From positions 208,586-261,162 of the forward strand of contig BLSG01000137.1 in the NCBI GenBank assembly GCA_012862495.1: a stretch of DNA of 52,577 nt, in the 5' to 3' direction. The notes under the pieces are model-generated. The model made no database searches, was not told the origin of the DNA, and saw only the letters and a program-made list of their open reading frames with translations. Positions 25,393 through 46,405 of this stretch are shown here, one piece after another; within the stretch, counting starts at the first letter, position 1; every line of letters starts with the position of its first letter. Source of the stretch: Thraustochytrium aureum (lineage: Eukaryota). Position numbers and translations under genes: made by a program.

Positions 25393-27500
25393 CTACAAAA
25401 CAACGTTGACGCCCCGATACCCCGGCAATCGCGCGTCTGCGCCACCAGCGCTGTCAGCGGTGTCGCCGGCGTCCCGACTTCCAAAGCTGCGACTGCCGCC
25501 GAGTTGCTCAAGAGAGGCCCGGTGAAAAATCGGCGAGAGCGAGCCGGGGCCGTGCTCTGGCGATCCGCCCCCCGCAGACGCCACGGACGGGCGGCGGGAG
25601 CCGCGGCGGCGGCCACCGAATACAGGCTTCAAGTACGTTTCGTCAAAGTGGCGCCACGCGGCTGACAGGGTGCCGTACTGGAACCCGTCCCCGTCCTCCG
25701 ACTGGTTCGGGTCAAAGCTCGCCAATGCGCTTGCGTCCGTGTTCGCCCTCAAATGAATCGTGTCAGGGGTCATCCCGAGGTGCAAGAGGCTTTCCGGGGA
25801 AGACATCGCTCCATAACCGAAAGCAGCCTTGCGCCGCTGCTCGCCGTGAAAGCTGAGCGGGGCCTTTTCATGGGCAACAACGCCCAGGCCTTGCGCGGCC
25901 CAAAACAGCGAGGAGCCCTGGACCACATAAGTAAAGAGGATGACAGAGATTGTCGTGGTCACCATCATCCCCTCGCGGTTCAGCACGGGGGCGTGCAGCG
26001 CCAAGGCAAAAGCCACAGCGCCTCGGAGCCCGGCAAGCGACATGAAGACCTGGGCACGCCATCCGATGTACGACGGGACAACCCTGTAGGCCGGCGGTGC
26101 GAGGTGGCCGCTGGTTCCGTCCCTGTACAGCGGGCGAGACTCGGCCTCGCTCTCCCGGCTCGCAGAACCTCGAAAGCAAGCAGACACCCCAGCACAAGCC
26201 AGGAACGAGATGGCGCGGCAGGGGGGCCACCGGGACCAGGAGGCGCGATGCGACGTCACCCACTTGGTCAGGTTGATAATGTTGCTTGAGAAGACAATAT
26301 GCACGAAGCGCGAGGCCAGGCACAGAACGAGCAAGACGACGATTAGGGTACCGTTCCACTCGCCCTCGGAGACGGAAAACACCGAGGCACCAAGGAAGAC
26401 AAACACAAAGGTCTCGGCAAGGTGCCCGATGGTCTTGAACCAGCTCGCTGTGGCCAGCTGGCTCATGTGCGAGATGTTGTAGAACGAGTAGTGGGTCATC
26501 GTGGCGCCGCAAAAGAAGAGCGCCACGACCGGGGAAAGCCCCACCTGGCGCGGCAACAAGTAGCTCAGATACGCAAACAGCAGCAGGATGGCCTGCTCGC
26601 GGCCAGGGCTGTTTTGCAGATGCACGGCCCGCCGCAGTGTGTACGCGCTTAGGAGCCCCATGGAAACTCCCGCCACCATGGACAGCGCGGTCACCGCAAC
26701 GAACCGGTAGCACAGCATTGCCACGTCACCTTCCTTCATCGCGTTCATGTCCCCGCGGGCCATCAGCACGGCGTGGTAGACGCGAAACTCGTTGTACAGC
26801 ACGACGGCGACAGCGCTGTTCAAAACGCTCTCCCCGAAAAGGAACGCATAGATCTGCCTGTCCACGTCAGCCGGGAGCATGCCGAGAACCGCGCCAGGGT
26901 CGACGGCGGAGAGCAGCGCCCCCAGGATCAAGCAGTCTACGAGGGGCATAAATACGCCACCGGGGTGGTTGTCGTGTTCAAAGTCAAGGAGCAGCCCGTC
27001 CCCGTCCGGCTTCCAGTCCTTGTTCGATGTGAACCGTCCTATGATCCCGGTCTGGAACGCCCAGTGGACCCCGACCCCGATCGCGACCGTGGAAAAGATG
27101 GTGCCAAGCAGCGAAAAGCACAAAATCCCGGAAAGGTTTCGAAAGAACGACTTGTTCTTGATCGAGAAGGCGTTGCTGAAGATGATGGCCGGCAGCAGAA
27201 AGTCAAAAAACACCCCGGAGAATCCGTACAGGATTGTCTCTGTCAGGTCTTCGTACTTGAACGCCCACGAGAGGGCGCCCAGGCACACCCCGATCGCGAT
27301 CGCCACAATCTGCTCAGGGAGGAAGCTCAACACGCCCAGCCGCTTGCGCCAGTACATGGCCACCAAGCAGAGCAGATTCGCGCCTGTCAGCATGACCATC
27401 TCCACGTCGGCGGCGACCCAGAGGCCGAACCCGCGATGCCGTACGGTAGCCCGAGCACCGTCAGCTCTGGCACGCCGCCCGTTGGCGCCGCCGTCGCCAT
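25393..27500 (-). CDS. Na+/H+ exchanger, CPA1 (NHE/NHX) family; likely start at 27500 with a frameshift near 27431
   Basis: FFDFLLPAIIF, FFRNLSGIL..LGT, LSAVDP, LFGESVLN, ETFVFVFLG, AGLRGAVAFALA. Confidence 0.93.
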
Positions 27501-27728
27501 CCTCGCAGCCGCCGTCCTCGCAGCCGCCCGTCGCTGCGCCTCTGCTTGCAGCGCCTCTGCTCGCAGCGCAGCGCAAGCGAGAGAGAAGATTGGGACGACC
27601 TAACCCATGACCTAACAGACCTCCATCCACTTGACGATCTATCAATCAATCAATCAATCCCCGGTGGCATGCACCGATGTCAACTGGCGGTTCGGCGTCT
27701 TGGGCCCGTCGTCGTCTCTTTTCTTGGA

Positions 27729-29219
27729 TTACTTTTCTACTTTACTTCCTGCAGCTGCCCTGCTCCTTGACACGGAGGACGCGACGCTTTGGGCGACAGC
27801 GTCGAGAGGCTCGTCGCCAGGAATGAAGAGCCGCTGGTCTTCGAGTTCAAAGAGCCTCGGCAGCAGCTCCCGCTCGGCCTCGAGTCTCGCGGTCCTGATA
27901 CGTGCTTCGACCTCGGCCTTGCTTCCCAAAAAGCAAGGGATCACTGTGCCCTTGACTTGTGCTTCGCGGCGCAGTGCAACGCGAGTCTCGTTGACGCAGT
28001 ACTTGGAGTCGAAAAAGTTGACCAGGTTGACGAGGATCACGATAGCAGGGGCTTCCTGGAGTACGCGCTTCATCTCTGCCGTGGGGTTGCTTGAGACCTC
28101 GAGGTTTCTGGCGTCCAAGAACGGCGCAAGCGCGTTCTGTTCGAGATCACGGCGAATCTTTTCTGCGTCATACTTGTTGTCGCCACGGTGCACGATGAAC
28201 ACGTCGTACTGGCGATCGCCAAGCCCCGATGAGGTGCTTGCTATAACTGCCATCGAGTTGCTCGCTGGTTCTGTTCCATGCTTGAGCGCGGCAGCAGCTC
28301 CAGAGAGCCTGCTCGCTTGTCGTCTCTTCCACGTCACGATACCAAAGGCCGACAGGAGGGCGAGAGTGACACCAACGAGACTGCCTCCAACTATGGTTTC
28401 AGCACTGAGGCCTTCAGAGCCTTGACTGCCGCGCAGGTTGCTGGCGTCCTCCTTGGTTGCGCTCGTTGGCGCCCTTGTTCTTTGGTCAGACACCGGAGCA
28501 GCGTTCCGCGNNNNNNNNNNNNNNNNNNNNNNNNNNNNNNNNNNNNNNNNNNNNNNNNNNNNNNNNNNNNNNNNNNNNNNNNNNNNNNNNNNNNAGGCGC
28601 TCGGCGAGGCGCTCGGCGAGGCGCTCGGCGCGAACGACGGCGCAGAGCTTGGCATTCGCGAAGGAGAAACGCTAGGCGAGGTGCTAGTAGGGGCGGTGCT
28701 AGGCGCGGTGCTCGGCGCCTGCGTCGGCGCACGCGTCGGCGAACCCGACGGCAACTTGGTCGGTTTCGAGGTTGGCCGGGGCACGCCAAGCGCTTGCCCG
28801 CAATCCGAGCAGTCGGTGCCCAGCTTGCAAACTGTGGATTTGGCAGTTGGCCTGCCATCGTCGCAGAGCCCAAAGCGGACAATTTCACACCCAACAGCGC
28901 CATCGTCCTCGATCCGTCCGTCGCAAGTATCATAGCAAAGGTCAGCCGTCGGGCTCGTAGGATCTGGGCACGTGTTGCAGGTCACTGGGCACTGCCGCCG
29001 AACGCGTGTCCCGAAGTCAGAGTCCTCGGCGCAGTACTCTGCCAGCTCCGAACAGGTACTTGCCCACTCTGATATGTACCAGGACGGGCATGCCCTGCCG
29101 ATGACTATAGTCGGGTTTCGGTTGTCACCAACGTGGCCTTCCCACCCTGGGCACCACTGCGAGGCAGCTCCGACAGCATACAGCGCGACGCCGGCGGCCA
29201 CCAGCCTCGCATTGCCCAT
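27729..29219 (-). CDS. Single-pass receptor: signal peptide, ShKT-like domain, Cys-rich module, PT/PS stalk, TM helix, TIR domain
   Basis: Signal MGNARLVAAGVALYAVGAAS. ShKT-like C..C..C..RRQCPVTCNTC. Module CDDG..CKLGTDCSDCG. Stalk PTRAPTQAPSTAPS. TM IVGGSLVGVTLALLSAFGIVTW-KRR. TIR YDVFIVHRG..PFLD..AIVILV..FFDSKYCVNE..VIPCF. Confidence 0.88.
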   Translation of the reverse strand: MGNARLVAAGVALYAVGAASQWCPGWEGHVGDNRNPTIVIGRACPSWYISEWASTCSELAEYCAEDSDFGTRVRRQCPVTCNTCPDPTSPTADLCYDTCDGRIEDDGAVGCEIVRFGLCDDGRPTAKSTVCKLGTDCSDCGQALGVPRPTSKPTKLPSGSPTRAPTQAPSTAPSTAPTSTSPSVSPSRMPSSAPSFAPSASPSASPSAXXXXXXXXXXXXXXXXXXXXXXXXXXXXXRNAAPVSDQRTRAPTSATKEDASNLRGSQGSEGLSAETIVGGSLVGVTLALLSAFGIVTWKRRQASRLSGAAAALKHGTEPASNSMAVIASTSSGLGDRQYDVFIVHRGDNKYDAEKIRRDLEQNALAPFLDARNLEVSSNPTAEMKRVLQEAPAIVILVNLVNFFDSKYCVNETRVALRREAQVKGTVIPCFLGSKAEVEARIRTARLEAERELLPRLFELEDQRLFIPGDEPLDAVAQSVASSVSRSRAAAGSKVEK

Positions 29220-30336
29220 ATTGATCGGCTCGGCGGCAGCTTTTCGCGCAGTGCTAGTTGTGTTGGTGACCAGCCGCGTTCTTCCTTCGGTCAAGGTCCT
29301 GTGCGCAAGCGTTTGGTGTCTGCTGTTCAGGCTGCTATCCTGCACGCTCGTGGTCGTGGTGGTGGCCGGCGTAGTCGTCGGTCGACACTCCCAAGCAAGC
29401 AAGCAAGCGATGCGGTTGCCGTTCTGGATGTCCTGCACGAGGCCTTGCGTTCCTGATTTTGACTCGCTTGTGCCGTTCTGGAGTGAATCGCAATTGCGAC
29501 TCGCGGCGAGCATCTCGATCGCAAGCTGTTCAACTTTCAAGGGAGGGAAAAGCGCTCGCGCGCCGGAATGGCGACGCTAGACTAGATCTTATCGAGCAGC
29601 AGCGTGCGAACTGGCCCAGCGCGCGAAAGCCCCCGTCCACCAGCTGACGCGTGAGTGGGTCGCGCGCAACACGTGTTCATCAACCCAACCACTGACGAAC
29701 TCAAGCCTGTCCGTTACTCGGCCTGAGAGGAGAATATGAAAGCCACCGGCAGAGAGAAATGGGGTGTGCATCTCACGCTGCTTCACATTCTTGAGAGTGT
29801 GTTCAGGTCGCCATCTGCTCGGTGCAGCTTCTTCGGTACTCTACGCTTGACGTAAGTACGTGAACATCAACGACTCGTCCAGCGCTCGGACGGTGATCTC
29901 GCGCCGCCCGGAGCGTTGGAGAGTCATTCAACCCTTTTATTTGAATGTGAGGCTTCAACGAAGCGACGAGACGGCAATACAGTTCGTCTGTCCGGAGAGT
30001 GGTGCGTCGCGGAGACGAGCTCTGCGCGGTTGAGCCACGAGAGAATGGTCTCCTGCCAGCCACAGTGTATGTGGCCTCAGGAGCAGGCTCAGAACAGATT
30101 CAAGCAACGCCGCTTCGACCCTCCGTTTGGACAATTTGCGAACGAAGTGTGCGTCAGCGCGGTCTGCCATCAAGCTGGCAAGCAAGCAGCGGGCCTTTGT
30201 TTGAAGAGGGGAAAGCGGTAGCAAAGGACCGCCGCCGAGTCGTGGGGCCGACATCATCGCCCCTACGGACGGCTTGGTTCGCTGCATCGGTTGTGAGCAC
30301 GTCTTTGCCGAAACTCTTTCTACTAGCTCGAGAGAG

Positions 30337-30385
30337 GTAGTAGAGAAAGAGCTAGCTCTCTAGTAGTAGAGAAAGAGCTAGCTCT
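30337..30385. repeat. 23-bp direct repeat containing the palindrome AGAGCTAGCTCT
   Basis: GTAGTAGAGAAAGAGCTAGCTCT at 30337-30359 and 30363-30385. Confidence 0.85.
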
Positions 30386-31340
30386 AGCTGCGAGCGGTCG
30401 TCCAACTCAAGCTCTACTAGAACTAGAGGGCTCCCGTGCGAAGAGCATACTAAAGGGCTCCCCTGCAGAAACATCGATTGCGGGAGCAATGCGACTGAGC
30501 GTCCTATGTATGGCCTTTTCGCAACCCGTGTTGACAAGGCAGCCTCTGGTTCCGGCGCGAGCTGCATTCTGAGCACGGCTTGATCAAGGAGCTTATCGCG
30601 GCTTGACAGTGATCGATCGATCCAGCACTAGTTGCTTCCGCCAAAGCGAGGCGTCGTGACGCGACGATGATGAAATGTTTCGGGGAGCAGGCATTTCGGC
30701 GAGGGAGAACAAGTTTACCACCAAATGGATGGCATGCGATCTCTGGTCGTTGAGGGAGCGGGTTGCCGCGGATCCGGCTGGCAGGCGACTGACGAAAAGC
30801 ACCTCCCCTCGTGGTACCTCGAATGGAGAACTGGTTTTGTTCCGAGTGGACGAACTGCTCGGTGTGCACTCCCCTATACCTCCAGAGTAGTGAGTGAGTG
30901 CGACGACGACGGATGAGAGTGGTGCCTGCCGTCCGGAGTTGGCCATGCACGACGGAGACATCATGATCCTGCTGCAATCATTCACTTTACCACCTCTTTC
31001 GGCTGTGGGAGCCCAAACTCTGCCCCTTTGGGCGGGGCTACATACACGAGTGAGTACTTCCGCCCACACCTACTCTCTACTCTCTCCGAGAGGGAGAGAT
31101 TACTAGGTACGCTGTAGCAGCGCGATCCTCCTTGGCAGCAGGCGCTGCAAAAACGACAGCCTGAGCGCCACTCGCAGGAGGATGGCTTGGCGAGTACTGC
31201 GCACCTACCCACGCGTCTCCTAGTCGACCATCCATTCCCGTTCAAGCTCGTCTGCAGGACTCGGAGTGAGAAAAGCGACAACAGCCGAGGAGGCACACAC
31301 GTTCAATTGAGAAAGATCAGATCAGCTTTGCGGTCGGCAA

Positions 31341-32861
31341 ATGGCGACGATTGCATTGGTTGATGCAAGTGCGTCGGCGACCTCCATTCGCTGGCAGTCC
31401 ACGAACGATCGACAGGGCGCCGCGCGCGCTCGACACGCGCGTAACAGCAGCGAGCACAGCCAAGTGCGCGCGGGAAGAACTGAGCAGAGCACAACCCGGC
31501 TCAGCTGGAAGCGCGCAAGGGAACTCGAGTTAGCGCGAGAATTTGCGCCTTGCAGAGATGGATAAAGTCACCGCGACAGCGATTTGCAGCGGCAAGTCGG
31601 ATCAGGCGGGCTGCAACGCGGAGCAGTTTTGCTTGTGGGACCCGCGGGCGGGGACTTGCAAACTGTCGTTTTGGTTCCAGTACTGCGCACTTGACAACGG
31701 CAAGCCAACCACGTGCGATTACGGAAAGTGCGAGTTCAAGACGGTCCACGGCTTGCCAGACTCGTGCATAGTCGCCCAACGCCCAGCCGGCTGGACGTGC
31801 GAGTACAGCGACTACGGAACCAATAGCGGGTGCGACTGCGACTGCGGCATCTGGGATCCAGGCTGCGCAACAGAACCGGACCAGCAAGACACCCCGGTCA
31901 AGTGCGGGCCGTGGCGTTAGGAGAGGCTGTTAAGGGCACGTACTGCGCGTTTCCGTCCAACACGTGCGTGACGCGGAGCCCCACAGGTTCGCCATCCAAA
32001 GGGCCAACCATGTCTCCGACCAAGGCGCCGAGCATGGGTCCAACAACAGGCTCTCCGACGCGAACCCCGACGCGACAGCCTACCGAGTCCCCCGAGAAAG
32101 CACCGAGCGCCTCGCCAACTTGGGCGAAGCCGTCCCAAGCACCTAGCCGCTCACCTAGCCGCGCCCCGTCGGTGAGCAGGGCTCCAACGAGTGCGCCATC
32201 CGGCTCGCCAGCTCAGCTCCTCAGCGCCGGGGCTGCGCGAGACGAGAGCGCCGGGCTTTCAACCACCCAAAGGGGATTCTATGCCGCAGGTGTTTTGGCC
32301 ATCATTCTTGCCGTTGTACTTGTCGTCGCTTGGAGGCGTCGCGGTCACCGGCAACAAGAGCCAGGAATACCAAGAAAACCCGTCGTCATTCTGGCTAGCA
32401 ACAATCAGAAAAAGCTGGCCACCAGTATCCAAGGCGGACTGCGATCGAAACGAATCGAGTGCGAGATTGTGCCTTCCCTGAACGGTGAAGCCAGCGTCGC
32501 CGGCCAGCCCTCGAGTATCCACAGCGCTCATGTTGTTATAGTTCTTCTCTCCTCCGTGCAGGAGCTGGCAAACTATCCAGCCTTTCGAACTGCTCTTTGC
32601 GAGCTGCGCGACCGTGTCACTGACGATGCGGAAAGTGCCAATGTCCGAGTGTTTCCGATGTATCTGACGCAGTTGCATGCCTTGAGGGCCGAGGAAAGAG
32701 CGTCGTCGCACGAAAATTCTGTAAGCTGGCTGTTCAGCGAGGTCAGCGGCTGGGAGGGAGCGCCGCTCCTCGCATTCAACCTTGACCAGCTTGTCGTCGA
32801 GGCTGTGGTACAGTACAACAAGACGGGCACATTCCCGCTGATCCAAGAAATCCACCTATAA
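31341..32861 (+). CDS. Single-pass receptor: Cys-rich ectodomain, PT/PS stalk, TM helix, divergent TIR-like domain (possible intron 31369-31555; frameshift near 31908)
   Basis: Cys-rich region including WTCEYSDYGTNSGCDCDCGIWDPGC. Stalk SPTGSPSKGPTMSPTKAPS. TM FYAAGVLAIILAVVLVVAW-RRR. Cytoplasmic alpha/beta pattern PVVILAS..LATSIQGGL..HVVIVLLSS..RVFPMYL..WLFSEV. Start and signal peptide uncertain. Confidence 0.72.
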
Positions 32862-32886
32862 AACTCGCGCGCTTGAACAGACAGAT

Positions 32887-33118
32887 ACCCTTGCCTCCGT
32901 GGCCCTGCGCATAGAATTGGGCCAACCGCCGACCCCAAGCAGCACAAGCTGGTCCTTGCTTGCAGCGTCGCGCAAGATCACCAACTCGTCGAACGTCGAA
33001 AAGCACATCGACACCCTTGCCTCCGTGGCCCTGCGCATAGTATTGGGCCAAACCGCCGACCCCGAGCAGCACAAGCTGAATTCTGACCCTTGCTTGCAAG
33101 ATCACCCGCTCGTCGAAA
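32887..33118. repeat. Diverged tandem duplication, unit about 126 bp
   Basis: ACCCTTGCCTCCGTGGCCCTGCGCATAG starts at 32887 and 33013, followed by shared AGCAGCACAAGCTG, CAAGATCACC and CTCGTCGAA blocks. Confidence 0.85.
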
Positions 33119-33873
33119 AAACNCACCGTGCCAGTCCACGAACAGCTCCCTTGTCATCNNNNNNNNNNNNNNNNNNNNNNNNNNNNNNNNNNNNNNNNNN
33201 NNNNNNNNNNNNNNNNNNNNNNNNNNNNNNNNNNNNNNNNNNNNNNNNNNNNNNNNNNNNNNNNNNNNNNNNNNNAAACGTCACGCTGGCGCCTCCCCGA
33301 ACGAAGGCTGCTCCCAGCAGCGCACATCATACCCTTGACTCCCTCCCTGTAGCCCCCCATTTCAATGCTTTGACCCAAACTAGCTCCACCTCGGGTTCTC
33401 TTGTGGGTTCCCTTTCGCGGTGTGTCGTATTCGTAGGAACGCACGCGCACCCCCTCGGCGGCCTGCTGTCCACTCGCGAGATGCTCCTGGGCGTCACTCG
33501 ACACGCGCTGGCGGAGACGACGATGATGTTGATGATGATGAATGAGGAGTGCTCGCTCGCCCTGATGATGCTGATGCCGATGATGCTGATGGAGATGATG
33601 CTGATGGAGAAGACGACGAGGAAGTGATGCCGCTGGACGCGCGGCAGACTCCGAACAGGTGACGACGACGACCGACCTCGGACTGGTCGACCGCCAGACC
33701 CTGAACGTGGCGCAGCACGACGAGCAAGTCCAAGCTCGTGTTGGACGGCAGTGGCGGCGCCTGGGCTCCTCGCGCGAGCTGCGCTTTGCACAGGAGTGCC
33801 TCGGGGCCCGAGTCGCCGAGGCCGAGCGCCGAGCAGGGTCGCGCACAAGCCGTCGCTTCGGCGTGCGGCGGGC

Positions 33874-34866
33874 ATGTTGGGCGGCGTAGGCTTCGACCTG
33901 GTGGTTACCGCGAATGGGCTCATGTACGCGCTGTCGATGGTGGCCGTGTTTGTGATGGGAATGCTCTGGGAGTCGTCCGGGTGGGCGGCGAGGAGCAAGG
34001 CGGTCGGGCTGCGGTACGCGAGCGCGCTTCTCGGAGGCAGGGGGAGCAGGTCGCCGGCGCGGTGCCGACTCGTGGGCGCCGGGCCGGGCGACCCGGCACT
34101 GCTGACCCTGGCGGCGAAGAGGGCGCTCGAGGAGGCCGACATCGTGATCGCCGATCGGCTTGTGCCAGCAGAAACGCTCGCGCTCGTCAAAGGCCGCGTG
34201 GTGCTCTCGCGCAAGTACAAGGGGTGCGCGAACAAGGCGCAGGACGAGCTGCACGAGTGGACGCTAGCCGCGCTACGCGAAGGGCTCGACGTGGTCCGCC
34301 TCAAGGGCGGCGACCCTTTCTTGTACGGCCGTGGCGCGGAGGAGATCGAGGTCTTCCGCAAGGCCGGGTTTCCTGTAGAGGTCGTGCCCGGCATAAGCAG
34401 CTGCCTCTCGGCGCCGCTGGCGGCCGGCATCGCCGTGACCACGCGTGGCGTTGCCGACCAGCTGCTCATTGCGACCGGGCACGGCATGAACGACACCGTC
34501 CCGCGCGATGTTGCGCCGTACTACGCTGGAAGGACCACTGTGTACCTGATGTCCGTGAGCCGCATGGAGGCGCTCATGAGCCGCCTTCAAGAGCCTCACG
34601 TTGGCTTCCCCAGCAGCACCCCGGTTGCCGTCGTTGAGAAGGCATCAACGAGCAAGCAGCGCGTCGTCCGCGGGACTGTCGGCACCATCACCTCCATTTG
34701 CGAGGCGCTCGGCGTGCAGTCGCCGGCGACGATCGTGGTTGGCCGCGCAGCTAGTGCGCTCGTCGACCCGTCGCTCGGCCCAGATGCCACCTCAGACTAC
34801 CAACCTGGGCAGGGCTCTGTAAAGTTCGCGGCCGTGCCGACGGTGCCGTCCCTTGCTCGCGTCTGA
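33874..34866 (+). CDS. cobA: Uroporphyrinogen-III C-methyltransferase (SUMT; CobA/MET1/UPM1 type) with hydrophobic N-terminal extension
   Basis: LVGAGPGDPALLTL..ADIVIADRLV, VVRLKGGDPFLYGRGAEE, VVPGISS, TGHG, TVYLM, PATIVVG. Confidence 0.93.
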   Translation: MLGGVGFDLVVTANGLMYALSMVAVFVMGMLWESSGWAARSKAVGLRYASALLGGRGSRSPARCRLVGAGPGDPALLTLAAKRALEEADIVIADRLVPAETLALVKGRVVLSRKYKGCANKAQDELHEWTLAALREGLDVVRLKGGDPFLYGRGAEEIEVFRKAGFPVEVVPGISSCLSAPLAAGIAVTTRGVADQLLIATGHGMNDTVPRDVAPYYAGRTTVYLMSVSRMEALMSRLQEPHVGFPSSTPVAVVEKASTSKQRVVRGTVGTITSICEALGVQSPATIVVGRAASALVDPSLGPDATSDYQPGQGSVKFAAVPTVPSLARV

Positions 34867-35484
34867 GTTGTCCGCATCGCATCCGCGTCGGTCGACCTGC
34901 TCCGCCGCGACCTACTGTTTGAATTAAAAAACCAACTGCCCTGCCATCATGTTATCAATGTCATCTTCAAGCGGCGCCCTACAAGCGGCCTGTGAGCAAT
35001 CTGCAGACGGTGAGTCCCGCATCCACGAGTGTCGTCGCGGGGCCCGTTCGGTCACTTTCAGGGCGTGCAGGAGGCGGTCGTCGCCGAAGGTTGGTTGACT
35101 CAAGGCCGCTTGATCCGTGCGGCAACCGCCCAGGCAGTACTCTTCTCTGCTAGAGCTCGCTGGAGTTGGCTCTGGAGCTGCTGGAGCTCGATGCGCGCAA
35201 ACATGTGCAGCGTTGCTCGATCGTCCTGTTCTGCCTGGGATGAACGAAACCTGGCACACACTGTCTACTTACTTCTAATTAGCACAATGCTGTAACGGGC
35301 AACTCCTCCGCCTGTGCAGAGCCCTTTCGAACGAGGCCACGGGCGGGGAGGCAGCTGCTGCTCGCGGCCAGGTGGGCGCCAGGCTGCAGAGGATTCTCCC
35401 ACGGTAGCGTCTGGTGCTCACGAGCAATCGCTCTGTTGGTTTGGACGTGCGGTGAAGGCTGGGTTGAAGGCTGCAGCCGCCGGG

Positions 35485-37925
35485 ATGCGGCCGACGCAAG
35501 TCGCGCTCTGCGCCGCGGTGCTCCTGGCTTGCGCAAGTGTGGCGATGGGGTGCTGCGAAAACAAGTGCAGCGGACACGGGCAGTGCATGAACGGGTGCAC
35601 ATGCACGTGCCACGCGCAGTGGACTGGGGCCGACTGCTCGTTGAGACAATGCCCCTCCGGGCTCCAATGGGTTGGACCTGCTAGTGCAACCGACACTGTC
35701 CACTCAACCATGGCAGTGTGCTCGAACGTCGGCAGGTGCGACTCCTCTACAGGGATTTGCGTTTGCCAAGACGGCTTTGAAGGTCTGGCGTGCGAGCGGC
35801 TCAAGTGCCCGCTGAACTGCAACAACCGCGGGCGCTGCGTCTCGCTGAGCGACGCAGCTGAAGAAAAGGACGACCTCAACTTTTNNNNNNNNNNNNNNNN
35901 NNNNNNNNNNNNNNNNNNNNNNNNNNNNNNNNNNNNNNNNNNNNNNNNNNNNNNNNNNNNNNNNNNNNNNNNNNNNNNNNNNNNNNNNNNNNNNNNNNNN
36001 NNNNNNNNNNNNNNNNNNNNNNNNNNNNNNNNNNNNNNNNNNNNNNNNNNNNNNNNNNNNNNNNNNNNNNNAAGGACGACCTCAACTTTTTCCGCAAGGT
36101 CTCCTACTCGGGCTGGGACGCCAAGCGCATTTATGGGTGCAAGTGCGAGCCGGGGTGGGCTGGGTACGACTGCACGCGGCGCGAGTGCCCGCGCGGCGAC
36201 GACCCTCTCACGACTGGACAAGTTGACGAGATCCAAGTTCTAGATTGCACCTGCGCAGACACGTGCTCTGGCTCGTTTTACTTGTCCTTCCGTGGTGAGG
36301 CTACGCAAGCAATCTCGTTCAACGCAAACGAGGTTGCTGTCAAAGAAGCACTTGAACATCTCCACACGATTCGCGGTGTCAGCGTTGCTTTTACTGACGG
36401 CACCGCGGTGTGCGACAACGACGGCGTCTCGACGGCGATCACGTTCACGCACAATCCAGGCGACGTCCCAACGATTCAGGTGATTCAAAACGACCTCGAT
36501 TCTTCTGGAGGAACCAAGACCATTGCAATTGTGCACAGCGGCCAGACCTCGGCGAAAAGCGTCGTTTCAGTGACAGGAACCAAGGAGAATGAAATCTGCA
36601 GCGGCAGAGGAGTATGCGACTTTACGTCTGGGCTTTGCACCTGCTACACCGCCTTTGGGTCGAGTGACGGAGTCGGGGGGAAGGCACCTTTGGGGACTGC
36701 GGCTACCACTCTGGGGCCGCAAGTGCCTGCCCCGGCTCAACATCCTGCAGCGGGCATGGCACATGCAGCGGCGCAACTGCATATGTCTGCACCTGCGACG
36801 ACGGCTGGACTGGGCGCGACTGCGCGACGCGAACCTGTCCGACCGGCGTCGCGTGGTTTGCCGAGGCCGGGACAACGCTTCCCGCCCTTGTCGACGTCAC
36901 CAATAGCGCCACGTCGGTGACCACCCATGGCGACGTGCGCTCAGTCCTCAGCCGCGGTGACACGCTTGTCATAAACGACCAAGTTCTCACTGTGTCCTCG
37001 GATACTTCCGATACCTTCGATGCCACAACGATCCCGCTCGCCTCGGCGTACACTGGTGAGACCGTTGTCTATGCGGAAGCGTATGCGCGGCCAGAGCAAG
37101 CCCATCACCTCGTCGAGTGCTCCAACAGGGGGCATTGTGACTACCAGCATGGGAACTTGCACGTGCATGGTCGGCTTCACAGGGTCGGCGTGCCAAAAGA
37201 CCAGATGCCCTGCTGCGTGCAGCGGGCGAGGGACCTGCATGTCTCTTGCGAGCCTGGCGGAGAAAACCGAGGTTAACGGCGACGCCACCGACTTTACGTA
37301 CGGGCGAAATCCATCGGTGATTGGAACATGGGATCACGACAAAGTCTTTGGTTGCCGCTGCGACAAGTCACTTCTGCAAGGTGGGCACTATGATTACTGG
37401 GGCCACGACTGTTCGCTTTTGGCCTGCCCGACAGGAGACAACCCTTCGACCGAGAACGGATACGACGAGGTTCAGAACATCACCTGCAGTGCCACTAGTG
37501 GCTCTTTCACGGTGTCGTTCCGGCAAGAGACCTCAGCCAGCATTGCCTTTGACGCGACGGCTGCACAAGTCAAGCAAGCCTTGGCTGCAATGTCAACGAT
37601 CGGCTCGGCCACGGTCACCTTCGATTCTGGCTCCGCAGCTTGCAGCAGCGGCGGCGTTGTCATCTCCGTGACCTTTACGAGCAGGCCTGGCGACTTGCCG
37701 CTCATGACAACGCAGACCTCGCTCTCGGGCGGGTCGGCCGACGCGCTCGTTGCCGAGGCGGTCAAGGGCACCAAGGAAAATGCAGAGTGCTCGCAGCATG
37801 GCCTCTGCGACCGCAGCACTGGCGCATGCAAGTGCTTTTCCGGCTATGTCTCATCAAATGGCCAAGGAGGTTACGGCACCCGCGGAGACTGTGGTGCTCG
37901 AGACGCCCTCTACACTGGGTCTTAG
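35485..37925 (+). CDS. Secreted tenascin-type EGF-repeat protein, Sig1/Ocm1 mastigoneme-like (frameshifts near 36683 and 37145; false gap)
   Basis: Signal peptide, then CSGHGQC..WTGADCSLRQCP, CSNVGRCD..G.C.C..GFEGLACER, WD..YGCKC..GYDC..CPRGDDP, EICSGRGVCD. The module occurs twice. Confidence 0.85.
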
Positions 37926-40036: not shown

Positions 40037-43000
40037 TCACATGAGCAAGACCGTGCACCGGTCAAAGTCGTGGTCCATCGACAGCGCGACGAAATAGAAG
40101 AGCGCCCGCGTCAAAAGAAACGAGTAGACCACAAACCCAAGCAAATAAAACCACCCCGCATCGAGTCGCGTCTCCACGCCAAAGCAGACCGACTCCTCCG
40201 GCGAGGCGCCCAGCTCGCCGAGGATGTCACCAAAGACCTGGGGGCAAAACGGCAAATTGTCCCCCACGACGCGGAAAAACTTGGGGATGTCGAATGCCAT
40301 GATGAGCACGGTCGCACAAAACACGTTGGTCGAGTTCCACGAGTTGCAGATCCTGTAGGCAAAAAGCAACGTGTGAGCGCGGCGCTTGGGAACAGGCGCA
40401 AACCAGAGGACGAGGCCGATCAGAATGCCCAGAGCAGGCGCCAGCAGAATGAGCACAAAGTAGGCGAGGCCCATGAGGAACAGGNNNNNNNNNNNNNNNN
40501 NNNNNNNNNNNNNNNNNNNNNNNNNNNNNNNNNNNNNNNNNNNNNNNNNNNNNNNNNNNNNNNNNNNNNNNNNNNNNNNNNNNNNNNNNNNNNNNNNNNN
40601 NNNNNNNNNNNNNNNNNNNNNNNNNNNNNNNNNNNNNNNNNNNNNNNNNNNNNNNNNNNNNNNNNNNNNNNNNNNNNNNNNNNNNNNNNNNNNNNGCCCA
40701 TGAGGAACAGGGCAAACCCATTGGTCTTGTTGGCCGGGTCCGCGTCCGCGAGCGCTGGAAGCACGCCGTAAGTCGAGGCAGTCCGCAGCTTGCCACCGTT
40801 CACGCCAAATAGCTCTGAGCCGAACCCGGCGACGCCAGTAAACTCAAACTCGTACACTGTCTGCGAGAACGCTAGAGCAAAGACCACCGGCCAAAGGATC
40901 AACCCGAGCGTTACAAGGGCGCGGCCGATACGCCGCCACATCGCAGCCCAGGTGCGCGCTTCTCGGTGGCCCAACAAGGAGGTTAGCGCCTCGCCACTGC
41001 CAGCGCCGCCGCCGCCGGAGCTGCCGGCCTCGGGGTTCGACCCGTCCAGGCTAAAGTCGCTCTCCTCGCCTTCGCCCTCACTGATGGGATTGTCTGGAAT
41101 ACTGTGAAAGTGCGTTCGGCCAGGCCCCGCCCCAAACGCCGCGCCATCCTCCGCCCCGCCGGCCGCGATGCTGGACAGATCGACCTGCATGGCCCGCATG
41201 TTTTCCGCCACGATGCGGTCGTGGTAGTAAATGATTAGGTGGTTGAGAAACACGGAGAGCAGCGCGGCGAGGAAGAAGGAAATGAGCCCCCACATGGGCA
41301 CGAACTCGACGTAGCCGACAAGGGCGTTCGGGGGGAGAAAGCTCATCTCGGGCTCTGGGTTCTTCACCGTGGTGTTCATCGAGGCGGTCATCAGCGCAAA
41401 CAAGTAAAAGATGGCCATGATCCACTTGCCCATGCTCTCCATGCCGCGCAGCAAGTAACCGCGGTGCGGGACGGTAAGCACGTTTGCCGGAACGACCCAT
41501 GCGTAGCCGAGGAACGCCACGCGCATCCACGGCAGGATGCCCGAGCAAAACCCTATAAACACAAAAAACAGGGCCGCGCCGGCTTCGGAAAGCAAATCGA
41601 TGCAATAGTCGAGCGTCATGGTAAGCATCGGGATTTCCTTGAGCTGCTCGCCCGCAACCTGAAGCACGATCGCGACGCGCCCCATGGTGAAAAAGTTGCC
41701 GGACACGAACAAGACAAAGTTGAACACGAGAGCGACCGCCACCGAGATGGCTACGCACGGCCCAATCGAAGGGTGGACTATCATGGCCCGGTCGCGCCCT
41801 AGGAGGTAGAGCGCATCGTTCTCGGAGACAACCTCGCGCGGGGACTGCAACACCGAGTTTCGCGACACGGAGCAGATTGAAACCCGCCTCCGAAACTGCA
41901 GCACGACCTCGCGGTGCGACGTGCTGGCCGTGCTCCCGCTGCCGTCCACGCCGCCCTTCCTCGCACCGTCCTCGCTGGACAACGTGTCTTGCGCCAGGAG
42001 TGCGGTGGTGAGAAACTCGCTTGCGGTGCGGTCGAGCGCCCTGCCCAGGTCTGCCCCTCTTCGTCGCAGTCCTGGTTGGAAATCCGAGGCCCCAGCGTCA
42101 GAGGAGCCTCTCCCGACTCGTCCTCTTCGCCAGACTCGCGGCCCGCTGCGGCATGGTCGTCCGGATCAAGCATGCCCCCCCCGCTGCTCGCCAGCACCTG
42201 GTCCACCGCAGCGCGCAGACCGCCGCTTGGGGAACCCTGATCGCTTGCGCCACTTGACCGCCGCAGCGCCGCGTTCGCCAAACTTGACCCGCTCGGGAGG
42301 CGAGCGCGAACCGCGGTTTTGGAGCGGGAAACCCAAACCGAGCCCGCCGCCGGAGCGCTCCCAGATCCCGGTTCTGGCGCTGGAGAGGCCAGCACTGAGC
42401 CAGGGGTTGACCGATTCGGCGTGCTGCTCCCTCCCGTGTTCAAATAGTCTGTCTGCAGCAGCGTGGTCGCCAGGCGCTGGCTCTGGAACTTGCGCAGGTT
42501 GTACGAGCGCCGCTTCGCGAGCAGCACCGACGTGGCAAATCCAAGCAGCATGAGCAAGGCAGAAACGACCATGAGGACCTTCATATTCGGCAGCCACCAC
42601 GGACGCTTCGCTTTGCTCTTGGTGTGCGGCTGCGGGTGTGGGGCATTGCCGGCCGCGCAGGCGGCGCGGAGCTTGGAGAGCAGGTTGTTGATGCCAAAGT
42701 TTACGTTGGCGCCGCCGAACAGCTCCAGGTCGCTCGAGTTGGTCAGCACCGCTGCAACGACTGGAATAAAACCGCCCAGAAAGTCCTGCAGGGCGCGCGC
42801 CGCATCGGGCTCTGACAAAAAGTCAAGAATGCTTGGCAACGTCGGCGAGGTGCACTGCCGGCAGGCGGCCGCTATCTCGATACCGCCAACTGCGACGACG
42901 AGTTCCTTCAGTGCAAACGGGGATTGCACGGAGGAAAAGTCCTGGCGCCGTCGGGGCGGCGCTGGCGCGAGTAGCGCGGCGCATGTGGACGCTAAGCGCT

Positions 43001-45140
43001 GTAGGTCGAACGCGGCTACAGCGGCCTCGCCGATCTCGGCGAGAACCGAGGCGTTCAAGGCTACGGCAGGCCTGGTTGTCGCGTTCGCGCCGCTCGGCTG
43101 CACCGGAACCGAGAGCAGGCGCAGGGCCACGGTGATTTCGTCGTGAATGTCCCGATCCTGGATATTCAGGCCAACGATATCGAGCGTTATGTCGGCCTCC
43201 ACGAGGAGCTCGCCGAGCGCCACCGAACTTGCAAGCTGCGCGTCACAACCTGGCACAGGCTCCAAAACGTCGAGGCCGATGATCGAGTCGGCCCCTCGAA
43301 GGGTAAGATTGGCGAGCTTGACCTGTGCGTTGGCTGGAGGAGTCAGGAACGGGAAGAACTCAAGCAAGTTGACCGGCCCGAGCGTTGCAAGATCACCCCC
43401 CAAGTGGAGCGTGCCGTTCTGCCACTGCGCTTCGCCAAATAGAAACTGCATTGCCCAGGCGGTGATGCGGTTCGCGCTCAGCGGCCCAGCGGAGCCGACA
43501 GCAGTGTCGAGAACCCAACGAGCGAGCGACAACACCAGGTTGTCTCTCCACACGATCGTCCTCTCATGGGCGCGCGGGTCCGAAGGGGGCGGCCAGGGCG
43601 CGAGCGGGCACTCTGCTTGTCGCAGTGCCGGCGTGAGGCGCATAGACGCAACTTGCGCGAGCTGCGCAGGGTATTTCTGTGCAACGCCCAGCGCTGGGCG
43701 AGCAAAGGTCTGCCAGACGACCGACGCCGCCGTTTGTGCCATGGCGAATACCGGGTCATTGCCCAGCAGGGCGATTGGTCCAAAGCCCATGGTTGGCGAG
43801 ACTTGCGCGAACGCCACGGTTGCATTCGCAAATACGGAGGCTGCGCACGCAAGAGGATGCTCCATCAAACTGGCAAGCGAAAGCCTCGTCAGACCCCGCG
43901 CGTCCAGGCCAAGCAAGACGGCGGCGGAGACGTTGATGCCGTGAAGGCTCGAATTGACCTCAAAAGGGGTTCGCAGACACGACTCTCCAGGCTTTTCGCA
44001 CGCCCCCTCGGCAAGCACAAACGCGCCGCGCACGGCCAAGGGGCTCTCCAAGGCGATAGCGTTGTTGACCGTGTACTTGCCCACAGGCCTTGCGAGCTCT
44101 ATTCCGCGCACAGAGTCGAGCCCGCTCAGGCGCAGCTCGACGAGCTCTAGGGCTATCTCTGCGCCAAGGACGTTGATGCGAAACAGGTCGATCGGCGCGG
44201 CCTGCGCGTCGACGAGGACCCAGTCAGAGCCCGGACCCCCTTCTAAGAGGTGGTCTTGAACGACGCGGTTCAGGGCCAGCTCGCTCGAGCCTGGCGCAGG
44301 CCGGCCCAAGACCTGCTGGACGAAGGCAGAGCCCAGTCTGACCGCAGAATTGTTGAGTGGGACGACGAAGTCGGCTCTTGTTCGGCTGCCCTCTTCCAAA
44401 GCGCTCCTGCTCTTCCGCGGTAACACCGACGCCTCAAGGTCCGAAAGCGACTCGGGCGAGCGCGGCATCTCGTGGTTGACAAACCAGTCCATGTTCCATC
44501 GCGCAAAGTCGAGGGCGAAGCTCGCCGCGGCAGTCATGGTGCGCGCCCCGACGCACAGGAGGGGGTCGATGACGAGCGGCCCCAGGGCCGGTGCGAAGGC
44601 GTTGAGGACCTGCTGGTCCATGAAGCTAAGAATGGCTTGCCCCCCGATGACGCGAAACGACTCGTGCGAAAAGCGCGCCCGAGGCCTGCAACGCGCGAGG
44701 TGGACGCCAGCCGGCAAATGCAGACCGCGATCGACGTGGCCAAACGGGCTGCGCGCCCACGTAAACTTCCAGGTCTGGTCCACGGCGCTGTCGGCCGTGT
44801 ACACTTCTAGCCCAATCTTGCCGCTGCCAATCAGCGGAGTTGCGCTCGAGTACGCCAAGACGCCGCTGCAGTCCGAGGCGAGCCCTGCGAGCACGGCGCG
44901 CACAGCGAGCGTCTGCGGCTGGTCGTCTGCGCTAAACTCGACGGCACCGATTTGCAGCTCGGGGCACTTGAGCTGAATCGAGCAGTTGACTTGGCCGCCG
45001 TCCAGCAACCTGAGCGGGAACTCTATCGCAGGGAGCGAAAAGTCCATGTCGCTCACCAGCCTGCTGATGAACTGCGACGGCTGCGGCCCCAGGCCCGCAC
45101 CAGCCGCACCCTGCGCGGCCGCCGCGGCAGCGGCAACCAT
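40037..45140 (-). CDS. Large membrane protein: long beta-rich extracellular region, TM helix, low-complexity linker, two PqiA-like multi-TM domains (frameshift near 42055; false gap)
   Basis: C-terminal FCSGILPWMRV..LLRGMESMGKWIM..WGLISF..A and a second copy LLAPAL..ICNSWNSTNVF resemble PqiA motifs. The start may lie further upstream. Confidence 0.65.
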
Positions 45141-46405
45141 CACAGCCGCCTTCGCGGCGGCTCGCCGCCTCCGCGGTGGCTGCGATCGTCCGNNNNNNNN
45201 NNNNNNNNNNNNNNNNNNNNNNNNNNNNNNNNNNNNNNNNNNNNNNNNNNNNNNNNNNNNNNNNNNNNNNNNNNNNNNNNNNNNNNNNNNNNNNNNNNNN
45301 NNNNNNNNNNNNNNNNNNNNNNNNNNNNNNNNNNNNNNNNNNNNNNNNNNNNNNNNNNNNNNNNNNNNNNNNNNNNNNNNNNNNNNNNNNNNNNNNNNNN
45401 NNNNNNNNNNNNNNNNNNNNNNNNNNNNNNNNNNNNNNNNNNNNNNNNNNNNNNNNNNNNNNNNNNNNNNNNNNNNNNNNNNNNNNNNNNNNNNNNNNNN
45501 NNNNNNNNNNNNNNNNNNNNNNNNNNNNNNNNNNNNNNNNNNNNNNNNNNNNNNNNNNNNNNNNNNNNNNNNNNNNNNNNNNNNNNNNNNNNNNNNNNNN
45601 NNNNNNNNNNNNNNNNNNNNNNNNNNNNNNNNNNNNNNNNNNNNNNNNNNNNNNNNNNNNNNNNNNNNNNNNNNNNNNNNNNNNNNNNNNNNNNNNNNNN
45701 NNNNNNNNNNNNNNNNNNNNNNNNNNNNNNNNNNGTTGGGGAGGTGGGAGAATCGAGCTCGGCGCGCGGGCGTCGAGACCAGACACGCTGTGGGGCTCCG
45801 TGCGGCTTGGGCTTGCGGTGGTCGGCAGTGCCTTCCATGCTGAGTTGATCGGGCGGCGCGGCGTCCGCGCACATGTGCGTCCAGGCCGAGGTGTCGGACT
45901 TGGGCCCCCACGCCGCTCACGGCTCTTGGATGTCGGGGAATCGAGCCCTCACCCTCCAGCTCGCTTCTCCCTCGTGAGCCTGAGAGAGAGCTAGAGCTCT
46001 CCAGGTCTTCGCCAGACGCAGAGACAGCGCGATCGGGCCCGGTCCGCGCCCTTGCCCCGAGCCAAGTAGCCTCCCCTGCAGATCGTGGGCACGCACCGCC
46101 TTGGCAGCAGACTCGACAGCATCCATCCCCATGGCGCCAGCGCACCTCGCCGTCCCCCGCGCTCCTTGGGCGCAGCAACGCGTCCGCCGCGTCCGCCGCG
46201 AGCGGCAGCGAAGCCTGGCGGCGGCGCCGAGTTGTCGAGACTTCGCGAAGGCGGGACAGGGCTGGAGGTCATCCATCCATTCAAGTACCACTCGCGGTCG
46301 CACGAGGACGGAGGTCTTGCGCGTCCAGATCCTGAACGCCGAGCGAGCGCGCTTGCCGGAGCGGCAGCGGGGAGGAGGAGGAGAAGGAGCAGGGCTCTGG
46401 GCGAT

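Follow-up and report, generated by a model that had tools for sequence, protein, structure and literature searches.

A head-to-head gene pair of Thraustochytrium aureum that likely encodes a predicted LRR-free receptor duo of Toll-like layout

Surface recognition of viruses, bacteria or other cells of their kind by unicellular eukaryotes is a largely open question. In Thraustochytrium aureum, two genes, A (minus strand) and B (plus strand), are head-to-head neighbours on contig BLSG01000137.1, within a window of 52,577 nucleotides (the whole stretch of DNA that was analysed), and they raise the question of whether their products form a membrane receptor pair. The divergent orientation given in the original prediction was confirmed, both genes being found on opposite strands and at the coordinates given there. 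The separation of about 2.1 kb that it stated fits an upstream ATG at 31341, whereas the distance from the ATG of A at 29219 to the first in-frame ATG of B at 31558 is 2,338 nt. The pair lies at the strand switch between a Na/H exchanger gene (minus) and a tetrapyrrole methylase gene (plus). A mobile element was rejected because there are no terminal inverted repeats around the pair. The features of the locus are the following:

27729..29219, minus strand: gene A, TIR protein of type I membrane topology, 496 codons, 28 of them unknown (sequence reading)
29160..29219, minus strand: gene A, predicted signal peptide, residues 1-20 (hydropathy scan)
28968..29090, minus strand: gene A, ShK-like six-Cys module, residues 44-84 (weak Pfam ShK match; six Cys read directly)
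28800..28937, minus strand: gene A, second module with 7 Cys at residues 95-140, without family match (direct reading)
28404..28781, minus strand: gene A, stalk in which Pro/Ser/Thr/Ala make up 69% of known residues (composition)
28335..28394, minus strand: gene A, predicted transmembrane (TM) helix, then a basic cluster (19-residue hydropathy peak 2.07)
27765..28208, minus strand: gene A, TIR domain (Pfam TIR_2, TIR)
27987-27989, minus strand: gene A, catalytic-position Glu of helix C (invariant column, 20 of 20 alignment rows)
29220..31557, no strand: upstream region common to both genes, between their starts; may contain an unrecognised first exon of B
31558..32861, plus strand: gene B, membrane protein with a predicted diverged TIR, 434 codons counting the base missing at 31914; 5' end uncertain
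31558..31967, plus strand: gene B, Cys-rich region with 16 Cys, without family match or detectable homology to that of A (direct reading)
31971..32264, plus strand: gene B, Pro/Ser/Thr/Ala stalk, 66% (composition)
32274..32330, plus strand: gene B, predicted TM helix, flanked C-terminally by basic residues (hydropathy peak 2.69)
32376..32830, plus strand: gene B, predicted diverged TIR domain (profile, Atlas, steered model)
32601-32603, plus strand: gene B, candidate catalytic-position Glu (MAFFT and HMMER, with a four-residue insertion)

Gene A presents, in this order, a predicted signal peptide, an ectodomain with 14 Cys, a stalk, a predicted TM helix and a TIR domain. The first module of the ectodomain matched Pfam ShK (PF01549) with E=0.014 and 16.4 bits, under the cut-off of 20.9, with the six Cys present; the Atlas search with the ectodomain returned scores under 0.8 only. 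The stalk is interrupted by a gap of 84 N (28511-28594), which is bridged by one X1 contig. The Pfam check proposed for the tail was carried out, and both TIR_2 (46.1 bits, cut-off 28) and TIR (32.4 bits, cut-off 21.3) were above the cut-off. The solved structures nearest to this domain are plant enzyme TIRs. We consider it quite probable that gene A encodes a surface TIR receptor with NADase potential.

Gene B repeats this order from the Cys-rich part onwards, with a 16-Cys region, a stalk (Pfam PT repeat, 25.5 bits, slightly below the cut-off), a TM helix and the tail. The common layout agrees with the claim of one architecture with different Cys-rich ectodomains, since the same order of parts was read in both genes and homology between the ectodomains was undetectable. 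In the window, gene B is split by a frameshift; X1 and X2 contigs carry one extra base behind 31914, so that the frames join into 434 codons. This frameshift is an assembly error, and its reading as a pseudogene frameshift was rejected; the frame is intact in two other runs. From the ATG at 31558, the hydropathy scan found no signal peptide (best 10-residue hydropathy 0.83, vs 2.19 for A), and the splice scan upstream of B did not reveal a convincing first exon. Two candidate exons were not accepted: 30945/30963-31049 is signal-like, yet has an 11-nt deletion in X1, and the best acceptor for 31341-31368 yields no good signal peptide.

Are both cytoplasmic tails TIR domains, as originally proposed? 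For A this is clear in Pfam. The tail of B had no TIR match in Pfam, and three weak, concordant tests predict that it is a diverged TIR. When A was excluded from the profile of TIR hits, the tail scored 7.2 bits, a value reached by 1 of 2000 shuffles; when the window was cut into 444 six-frame tiles, the two of A were the only ones above it (best unrelated tile, 2.5). With A included, the score was 7.0 bits and none of 1000 shuffles reached it. In the ESM Atlas, the nearest clusters were at 0.90-0.92 and the ten best family-bearing matches all belonged to the TIR clan, with 134-145 of 256 features shared, below the 170 usual within a family. Given a TIR alignment, AlphaFold2 produced a five-strand alpha/beta layout (pLDDT 71), a good model that was steered by that alignment. 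Its best match was chain A of 4C6T, which by its length would be RRS1; Z was 13.5, with an rmsd of 2.7 and 136 aligned, against Z 10.8 in the next row. Foldseek ranked a response regulator first for the same model. With hhalign the tail reached a probability of 1.4% (E 0.037). The single-sequence model (pLDDT 41) matched tautomerase-like folds only, which we rejected as noise, the model being too poor; a PRPP-synthetase Pfam match on B (E 0.1) was also rejected.

The likeness between the tails that had been noticed by eye is not significant in a pairwise comparison: the two domains share 23 of 138 aligned residues (17% identity), and BLASTP gave E=46. MAFFT aligned the motif pairs of beta-C and beta-D in the way proposed, while the third pair was four residues off. 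It should be noted that, in MAFFT as in HMMER, four residues must be inserted for the Glu of B to fall in the catalytic column; a shift of one helix turn would put Ala there.

As to whether these tails could associate, the A-B TIR heterodimer passed the alignment-free ESMFold2 prediction, a check put forward with the original prediction: the complex scored 0.64 against 0.01 for the best of three controls, which left out A-A, B-B and A or B with another TIR. At least 76% of the contacts agreed between runs, with a partner pLDDT of at least 74. Of 78 solved complexes, 51 attained the mark applied, as did 2 of 108 mismatches. For eukaryotes, the figures were 39 of the 65 solved pairs for which no similar older complex existed, 71/105 solved pairs in all and 2/126 unrelated pairs; in the test of the tool, 7 of 44 blind neighbours and none of 84 distant cousins passed. 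In both chains, the predicted interface is made up of the beginning of helix A together with the loops that follow strands C, D and E. It resembles the symmetric AE interface, a feature of enzyme TIRs (PMC8635717), and docking of the two domains is predicted to occur by way of such an AE-like face. Because a like complex has been solved (RPS4/RRS1, 4C6T), the predictor may have passed this pair by having memorised it. As the TIRs of A and B are predicted to pair, the two genes likely make up an LRR-free receptor duo of Toll-like layout.

The RPS4 and RRS1 genes are also arranged head-to-head. In this Arabidopsis pair, the TIRs form a heterodimer by way of the AE interface and keep one another inactive; the likeness consists of two TIR proteins with an AE-type heterodimer, for A and B a predicted one. 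RPS4 and RRS1 are, however, cytoplasmic NB-ARC-LRR proteins with an integrated decoy, whereas A and B would sense outside the cell, and Pfam found neither NB-ARC nor LRR domains in the two ORFs. Animal and choanoflagellate Toll-like receptors consist of a signal peptide, an ectodomain, one TM helix and a C-terminal TIR (PMC6040629). From the ectodomain onwards, the order of parts is the same in Toll-like receptors, IL-1 receptors and A and B, with one TM helix followed by a cytoplasmic TIR in A and by the predicted diverged one in B, but LRR or Ig are missing: Pfam assigned no LRR family to the ectodomains, both of which read as short Cys-rich modules, and for Ig there was no family match, a 33-residue PDB match (E 0.084) not being significant. 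Furthermore, animal TLR TIRs are non-enzymatic scaffolds (PMC11249213), in contrast to the enzyme-type TIR of A. The label Toll-like fits the layout only, because the TIRs resemble enzyme-type plant and bacterial TIRs.

The original prediction knew of no described system like this in stramenopiles. An LRR-free ectodomain-TM-TIR architecture is known, because such proteins, cogent1101_i1 among them, have been published for the haptophyte Gephyrocapsa huxleyi (PMC12489294). There, 5 of the 15 listed TIR genes have one TM helix and 6 have several, the ectodomain-TM-TIR genes are induced early in virus infection, and a receptor-like role is proposed. Compared by description, A shares with cogent1101_i1 the protist origin, a non-LRR extracellular region, one TM helix and a cytoplasmic TIR_2 with the conserved Glu. 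The ectodomain described there is periplasmic-binding-protein-like plus EGF, whereas A and B bear small Cys modules on a mucin-like stalk; in the sections of PMC12489294 consulted, no gene pairing or heterodimer is described. Dictyostelium TirC is another protist membrane-tethered TIR, an active Glu-dependent NADase, but it lacks an ectodomain and carries a single N-terminal helix, and TirB and TirD did not regulate it (PMC13142454). The early induction of the haptophyte genes and the activity of TirC are precedents for the receptor logic proposed below. The sponge Sd-TLR, with a TM helix, and the TIR-only membrane proteins of Hydra are LRR-free TIR receptors like A and B; theirs are animal scaffold TIRs, and Hydra relies on separate LRR partners.

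Relatives were also searched for in sequence collections. Among candidates of near length in a set of 5.8 billion sequences, no homolog was found for the A tail (0/1932), the B TM helix plus tail (0/1611) or the A ectodomain (0/92). JGI metagenome contigs queried with both tails, and viral contigs queried with the tail and the ectodomain of A, yielded no relative. The search against 50% representatives matched 42 generic TIR proteins, of which 19 were Pfam-scanned; the layout of A was absent from the 15 inspected by eye. An exact look-up of 7 proteins encoded in the window found none of them in the collection. In the published literature, subscription papers mostly excepted, we found no head-to-head TM-TIR pair in a protist, no ShK-TM-TIR protein and no labyrinthulid TIR. 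No published counterpart was found for the ectodomain types of A and B or for their divergent head-to-head pairing. The proposal of an LRR-free TIR surface pair retains its TIR tails, the lack of LRR and Ig matches and the heterodimer prediction. It is weakened by the haptophyte proteins and by the TM-tethered NADase of Dictyostelium, since a prior description of the architecture had been named as a refutation and this applies in part.

The reading that we prefer is that A and B, both predicted to cross the membrane once, function jointly in a single heteromeric receptor; its odds are close to evenly balanced for us, with a slight lean to doubt, and that they work as a functional receptor pair we propose tentatively. 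In such a receptor, the mucin-like stalks would keep the small disulfide modules at a distance from the cell. Binding of a multivalent surface (a virus, a bacterium, prey or another cell) would cluster the receptors. Once assembled in this way, the enzyme-type TIR of A could cleave NAD+, which would produce a signal molecule or deplete NAD+. By analogy with RRS1 for RPS4, B might be a co-receptor that widens recognition and restrains the TIR of A until the ligand arrives, and the shared upstream region may co-regulate both genes.

B may not be the dedicated partner of A, because A has further paralog-like contigs, with its TIR matched in X1, X2 and X3 and its 5' part in X1. These contigs fit a different explanation, in which A and B belong, each on its own, to a family of membrane TIR receptors that has expanded and evolves fast. 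Each would signal as a homo-oligomer, and the two would be adjacent through an old local duplication with inversion, followed by ectodomain swaps. The 11 of 15 listed G. huxleyi TIR genes with TM helices indicate that such families expand; the position at the strand switch between the exchanger and the methylase, and the fact that symmetric AE contacts are generic to enzyme TIRs, are also in line with it. We regard this explanation as rather unlikely, since the A-B heterodimer passed a prediction that no distant cousin in the test of the tool did, and since the low identity of the tails and the lack of detectable ectodomain likeness mean that A and B stayed neighbours through long divergence.

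Another possibility is that only A works as a receptor, B being a decaying or truncated copy that has lost its signal peptide, or else a TIR that is tethered to the ER and never displays its Cys-rich part. The missing signal peptide at ATG 31558 and a TIR under Pfam detection would agree with this, as would the GC at third codon positions (0.63-0.78, vs 0.80-0.84 in five housekeeping genes), although A is low too (0.67). The 15 listed differences of B from other runs, a small sample that may include a near-identical paralog, have a near-neutral ratio (11 non-synonymous, 4 synonymous). However, they bring no stop into the open 434-codon frame, remove no Cys and leave the TM helix and basic cluster intact; the sole indel in B is the one that restores the frame, while 9 of the 12 listed indels are in the spacer and none in gene A. 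X2 contigs, guessed to be RNA, span three stretches of B; for gene A itself and the spacer no X2 or X3 contigs (RNA by guess only) are listed, which is evidence neither way. Decay or ER retention of B therefore seems improbable to us. We give even less credit to non-immune surface sensors for prey, adhesion or mating recognition, with TIRs that are scaffolds as in animal TLRs and not enzymes. Cys modules on Pro/Thr/Ser stalks are common among protist surface proteins, and no tested feature ties A or B to infection; on the other hand, A retains the catalytic-position Glu and resembles enzyme TIRs, and comparable algal genes respond to virus.

Returning to the receptor pair, its most specific form is that A and B are a dedicated, co-regulated cell-surface sensor/executor pair within a larger variable receptor family. 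The logic of RPS4/RRS1 (head-to-head genes, an AE-face TIR heterodimer and an NAD+-cleaving output) would have been rebuilt by a protist in a membrane scaffold of Toll-like layout, where exchangeable disulfide modules substitute for LRRs; this is possible, and we rate it as unlikely. Any receptor with direct coupling of an external sensor to NAD+ cleavage by a TIR would unite the layout of animal receptors with the enzyme output of plants and bacteria, and, if the two proteins are indeed paired, they would represent a further independent origin of paired-receptor control.

Genes A and B form a head-to-head pair between a Na/H exchanger gene and a tetrapyrrole methylase gene, in a eukaryotic window of ~60% GC with few introns and with N scaffold gaps. 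The features are as follows:

25393-27645, minus strand: Na/H exchanger
27729-29219, minus strand: gene A (ATG 29219, stop 27729), with hydrophobic N-terminus, Cys region, stalk, one TM helix, basic cluster and C-terminal domain
31558-32861, plus strand: gene B
33781-34866, plus strand: tetrapyrrole methylase, extended at its N-terminus by a hydrophobic stretch

Five housekeeping genes of the window have a third-codon-position GC of 0.80-0.84, compared with 0.63-0.78 in A and B. Midway along the A/B spacer, at 30337-30466, there are two short direct repeats, of 23 nt and 18 nt, each in two copies, and a unit of ~126 nt occurs twice at 32884-33117, directly after the gene B stop and toward an N gap. 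Further along, 40420-46268 contains two long ORFs on the minus strand that encode hydrophobic segments; stretches of 490 and 1130 residues from them were scanned and gave no Pfam match. A secreted EGF/teneurin-repeat protein encoded at 35296-37925 resembles the flagellar-hair proteins of stramenopiles; identical peptides flank its N gap at 35885-36071, which looks like an artificial overlap. Flagellar-hair proteins of stramenopiles have tenascin-like EGF domains, according to a section of PMC5756292. In addition, the Atlas leads for the A ectodomain were diatom clusters, with scores <0.8. A stramenopile origin of the window is plausible.

In gene A, residues 23-140 hold 14 Cys; the first Cys module is ShK-like with a score under the Pfam cut-off, and Pfam and ESM Atlas searches assigned no family to the second one. 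Of the known stalk residues 69% are Pro/Ser/Thr/Ala, and the 84-N gap in the stalk keeps the frame and is spanned by a contig from another sequencing run (X1). The C-terminal domain of A is a TIR domain, scoring 46.1 bits with Pfam TIR_2 (cut-off 28), and has plant TIRs as the nearest solved structures (best E 0.0005). Among 1.84 billion representatives it had 42 matches at E ≤0.001. The best of them, P0007, shares 31% identity and is a singleton of 2120 residues with a TIR, a Schlafen-type helicase, a second TIR and a NACHT-like domain; its first TIR has the longer loop of A after strand C, and a stretch before strand E similar to that of gene B.

In the window, gene B is split over two frames, with an overlap at 31827-31920. 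One contig each from X1 and X2, runs that belong to different studies, carries an extra base behind 31914, which gives a single frame of 434 codons from ATG 31558; both contigs are of depth <5 and are concordant. The exchanger gene likewise has one base fewer at 27404 than the X1, X3 and X4 contigs, a second assembly error of the same kind, and this gene actually starts in a different frame. Gene B encodes 16 Cys and a stalk of which Pro/Ser/Thr/Ala make up 66%; basic residues follow its single TM helix. No signal peptide was found at ATG 31558, and none of the upstream first exons scanned was convincing; this absence is the chief anatomical doubt about B.

The original prediction took both tails for TIR domains and aligned them by eye. 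In a pairwise comparison the likeness was not significant (BLASTP E 46), and the tail of B had no Pfam TIR match and an hhalign probability as a TIR of 1.4%. A TIR profile built from the 42 matches, with A excluded, gave it 7.2 bits, a score that 1 of 2000 shuffles attained, and ranked it directly behind A among 444 window tiles; with A included it scored 7.0 bits, which none of 1000 shuffles reached. Its nearest ESM Atlas clusters were TIR proteins (0.90-0.92) and the best ten family-bearing matches all belonged to the TIR clan, although the shared features were below those usual for one family and one third of shuffled proteins also gave ten of ten. AlphaFold2 steered with a TIR alignment gave pLDDT 71, and the closest of 48,161 chains to this model was 4C6T chain A, of the solved complex of the Arabidopsis paired TIR-NLRs RPS4 and RRS1 (Z 13.5, rmsd 2.7, 136 residues); Foldseek returned TIRs mixed with response regulators. 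The unsteered model was unusable. These three weak tests are concordant, and the tail of B is very probably a TIR domain.

In an ESMFold2 prediction that used no alignments, the two tails together reached 0.64, whereas the best of 3 controls, which comprised neither homodimers nor other TIRs, reached 0.01; the runs agreed on at least 76% of contacts, with a pLDDT of at least 74 for B. The pass mark admits 51/78 solved complexes and 2/108 mismatched pairs, and for eukaryotes 39/65 solved pairs that have no similar earlier complex (71/105 overall) and 2/126 unrelated pairs. Both chains contribute the first part of helix A and the loops that follow strands C, D and E to the predicted interface. 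As RPS4/RRS1 has already been solved, the pass indicates likeness and is not proof that these copies bind. The RPS4 and RRS1 genes are also arranged head-to-head. The predicted contact is pseudo-symmetric and similar to the AE interface that PMC8635717 treats for enzyme TIRs and RPS4/RRS1.

As had been proposed, A and B share the layout of Toll-like receptors without having LRR, and unlike paired NLRs they lack NB-ARC; by membership they are neither. Nor is the single-gene architecture undescribed. Sections of PMC12489294 report proteins of the haptophyte Gephyrocapsa huxleyi that have no LRR, combine an extracellular region and a single TM with a TIR that carries the Glu, and are induced at an early stage of virus infection; its TIR table has 5/15 with one TM, 6/15 with several and 4/15 with none. 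Parts of PMC13142454 describe a TM-tethered TIR of Dictyostelium that acts as NADase, and a eukaryotic TIR atlas (n=7,432) that may include such architectures. LRR-TM-TIR is confined to choanozoans according to PMC6040629. Excerpts of a further group of papers describe repeated shuffling of TIR architectures and, among them, TIR plus TM region as a known class (PMC5094078, PMC2858798, PMC6043800, PMC9153377, PMC11249213, PMC2939053, PMC10732462, bioRxiv 10.64898/2026.10.11.758280). The literature searched yielded no protist head-to-head TM-TIR pair.

A and B might instead be independent paralogs, which we consider rather unlikely. At 85% likeness, among the matches listed, X1, X2 and X3 contigs match short parts of the A TIR and then diverge, and one X1 contig departs from A at a point 32 nt before the start codon; this suggests several paralogs of A, though the contigs may stem from other organisms in the runs. 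No close relative appeared in any sequence collection searched. That B is a decaying copy seems improbable: of 12 listed indels, 9 fall in the spacer of 2,338 nt, while gene A has none and gene B just the one that restores the frame, so both frames look constrained. Yet the 15 listed substitutions of B (11 non-synonymous, 4 synonymous) fit relaxed or diversifying selection. Three X2 contigs, from a run only guessed to be RNA, span parts of B at ~97-98%. Least probable are non-immune sensors with the TIRs as scaffold. The Glu at the catalytic position is invariant in the alignment of A with 19 of its 42 matches, picked as short ones; the candidate Glu of B reaches this column only via a four-residue insertion.

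The novelty lies in the head-to-head pairing of two deeply diverged genes whose ectodomains are unrelated and whose TIRs are predicted to form a heterodimer. A and B probably function in the manner of an enzyme TIR receptor, and the best explanation, which we hold tentatively at somewhat under even chances, is that they act together as one heteromeric TIR receptor.
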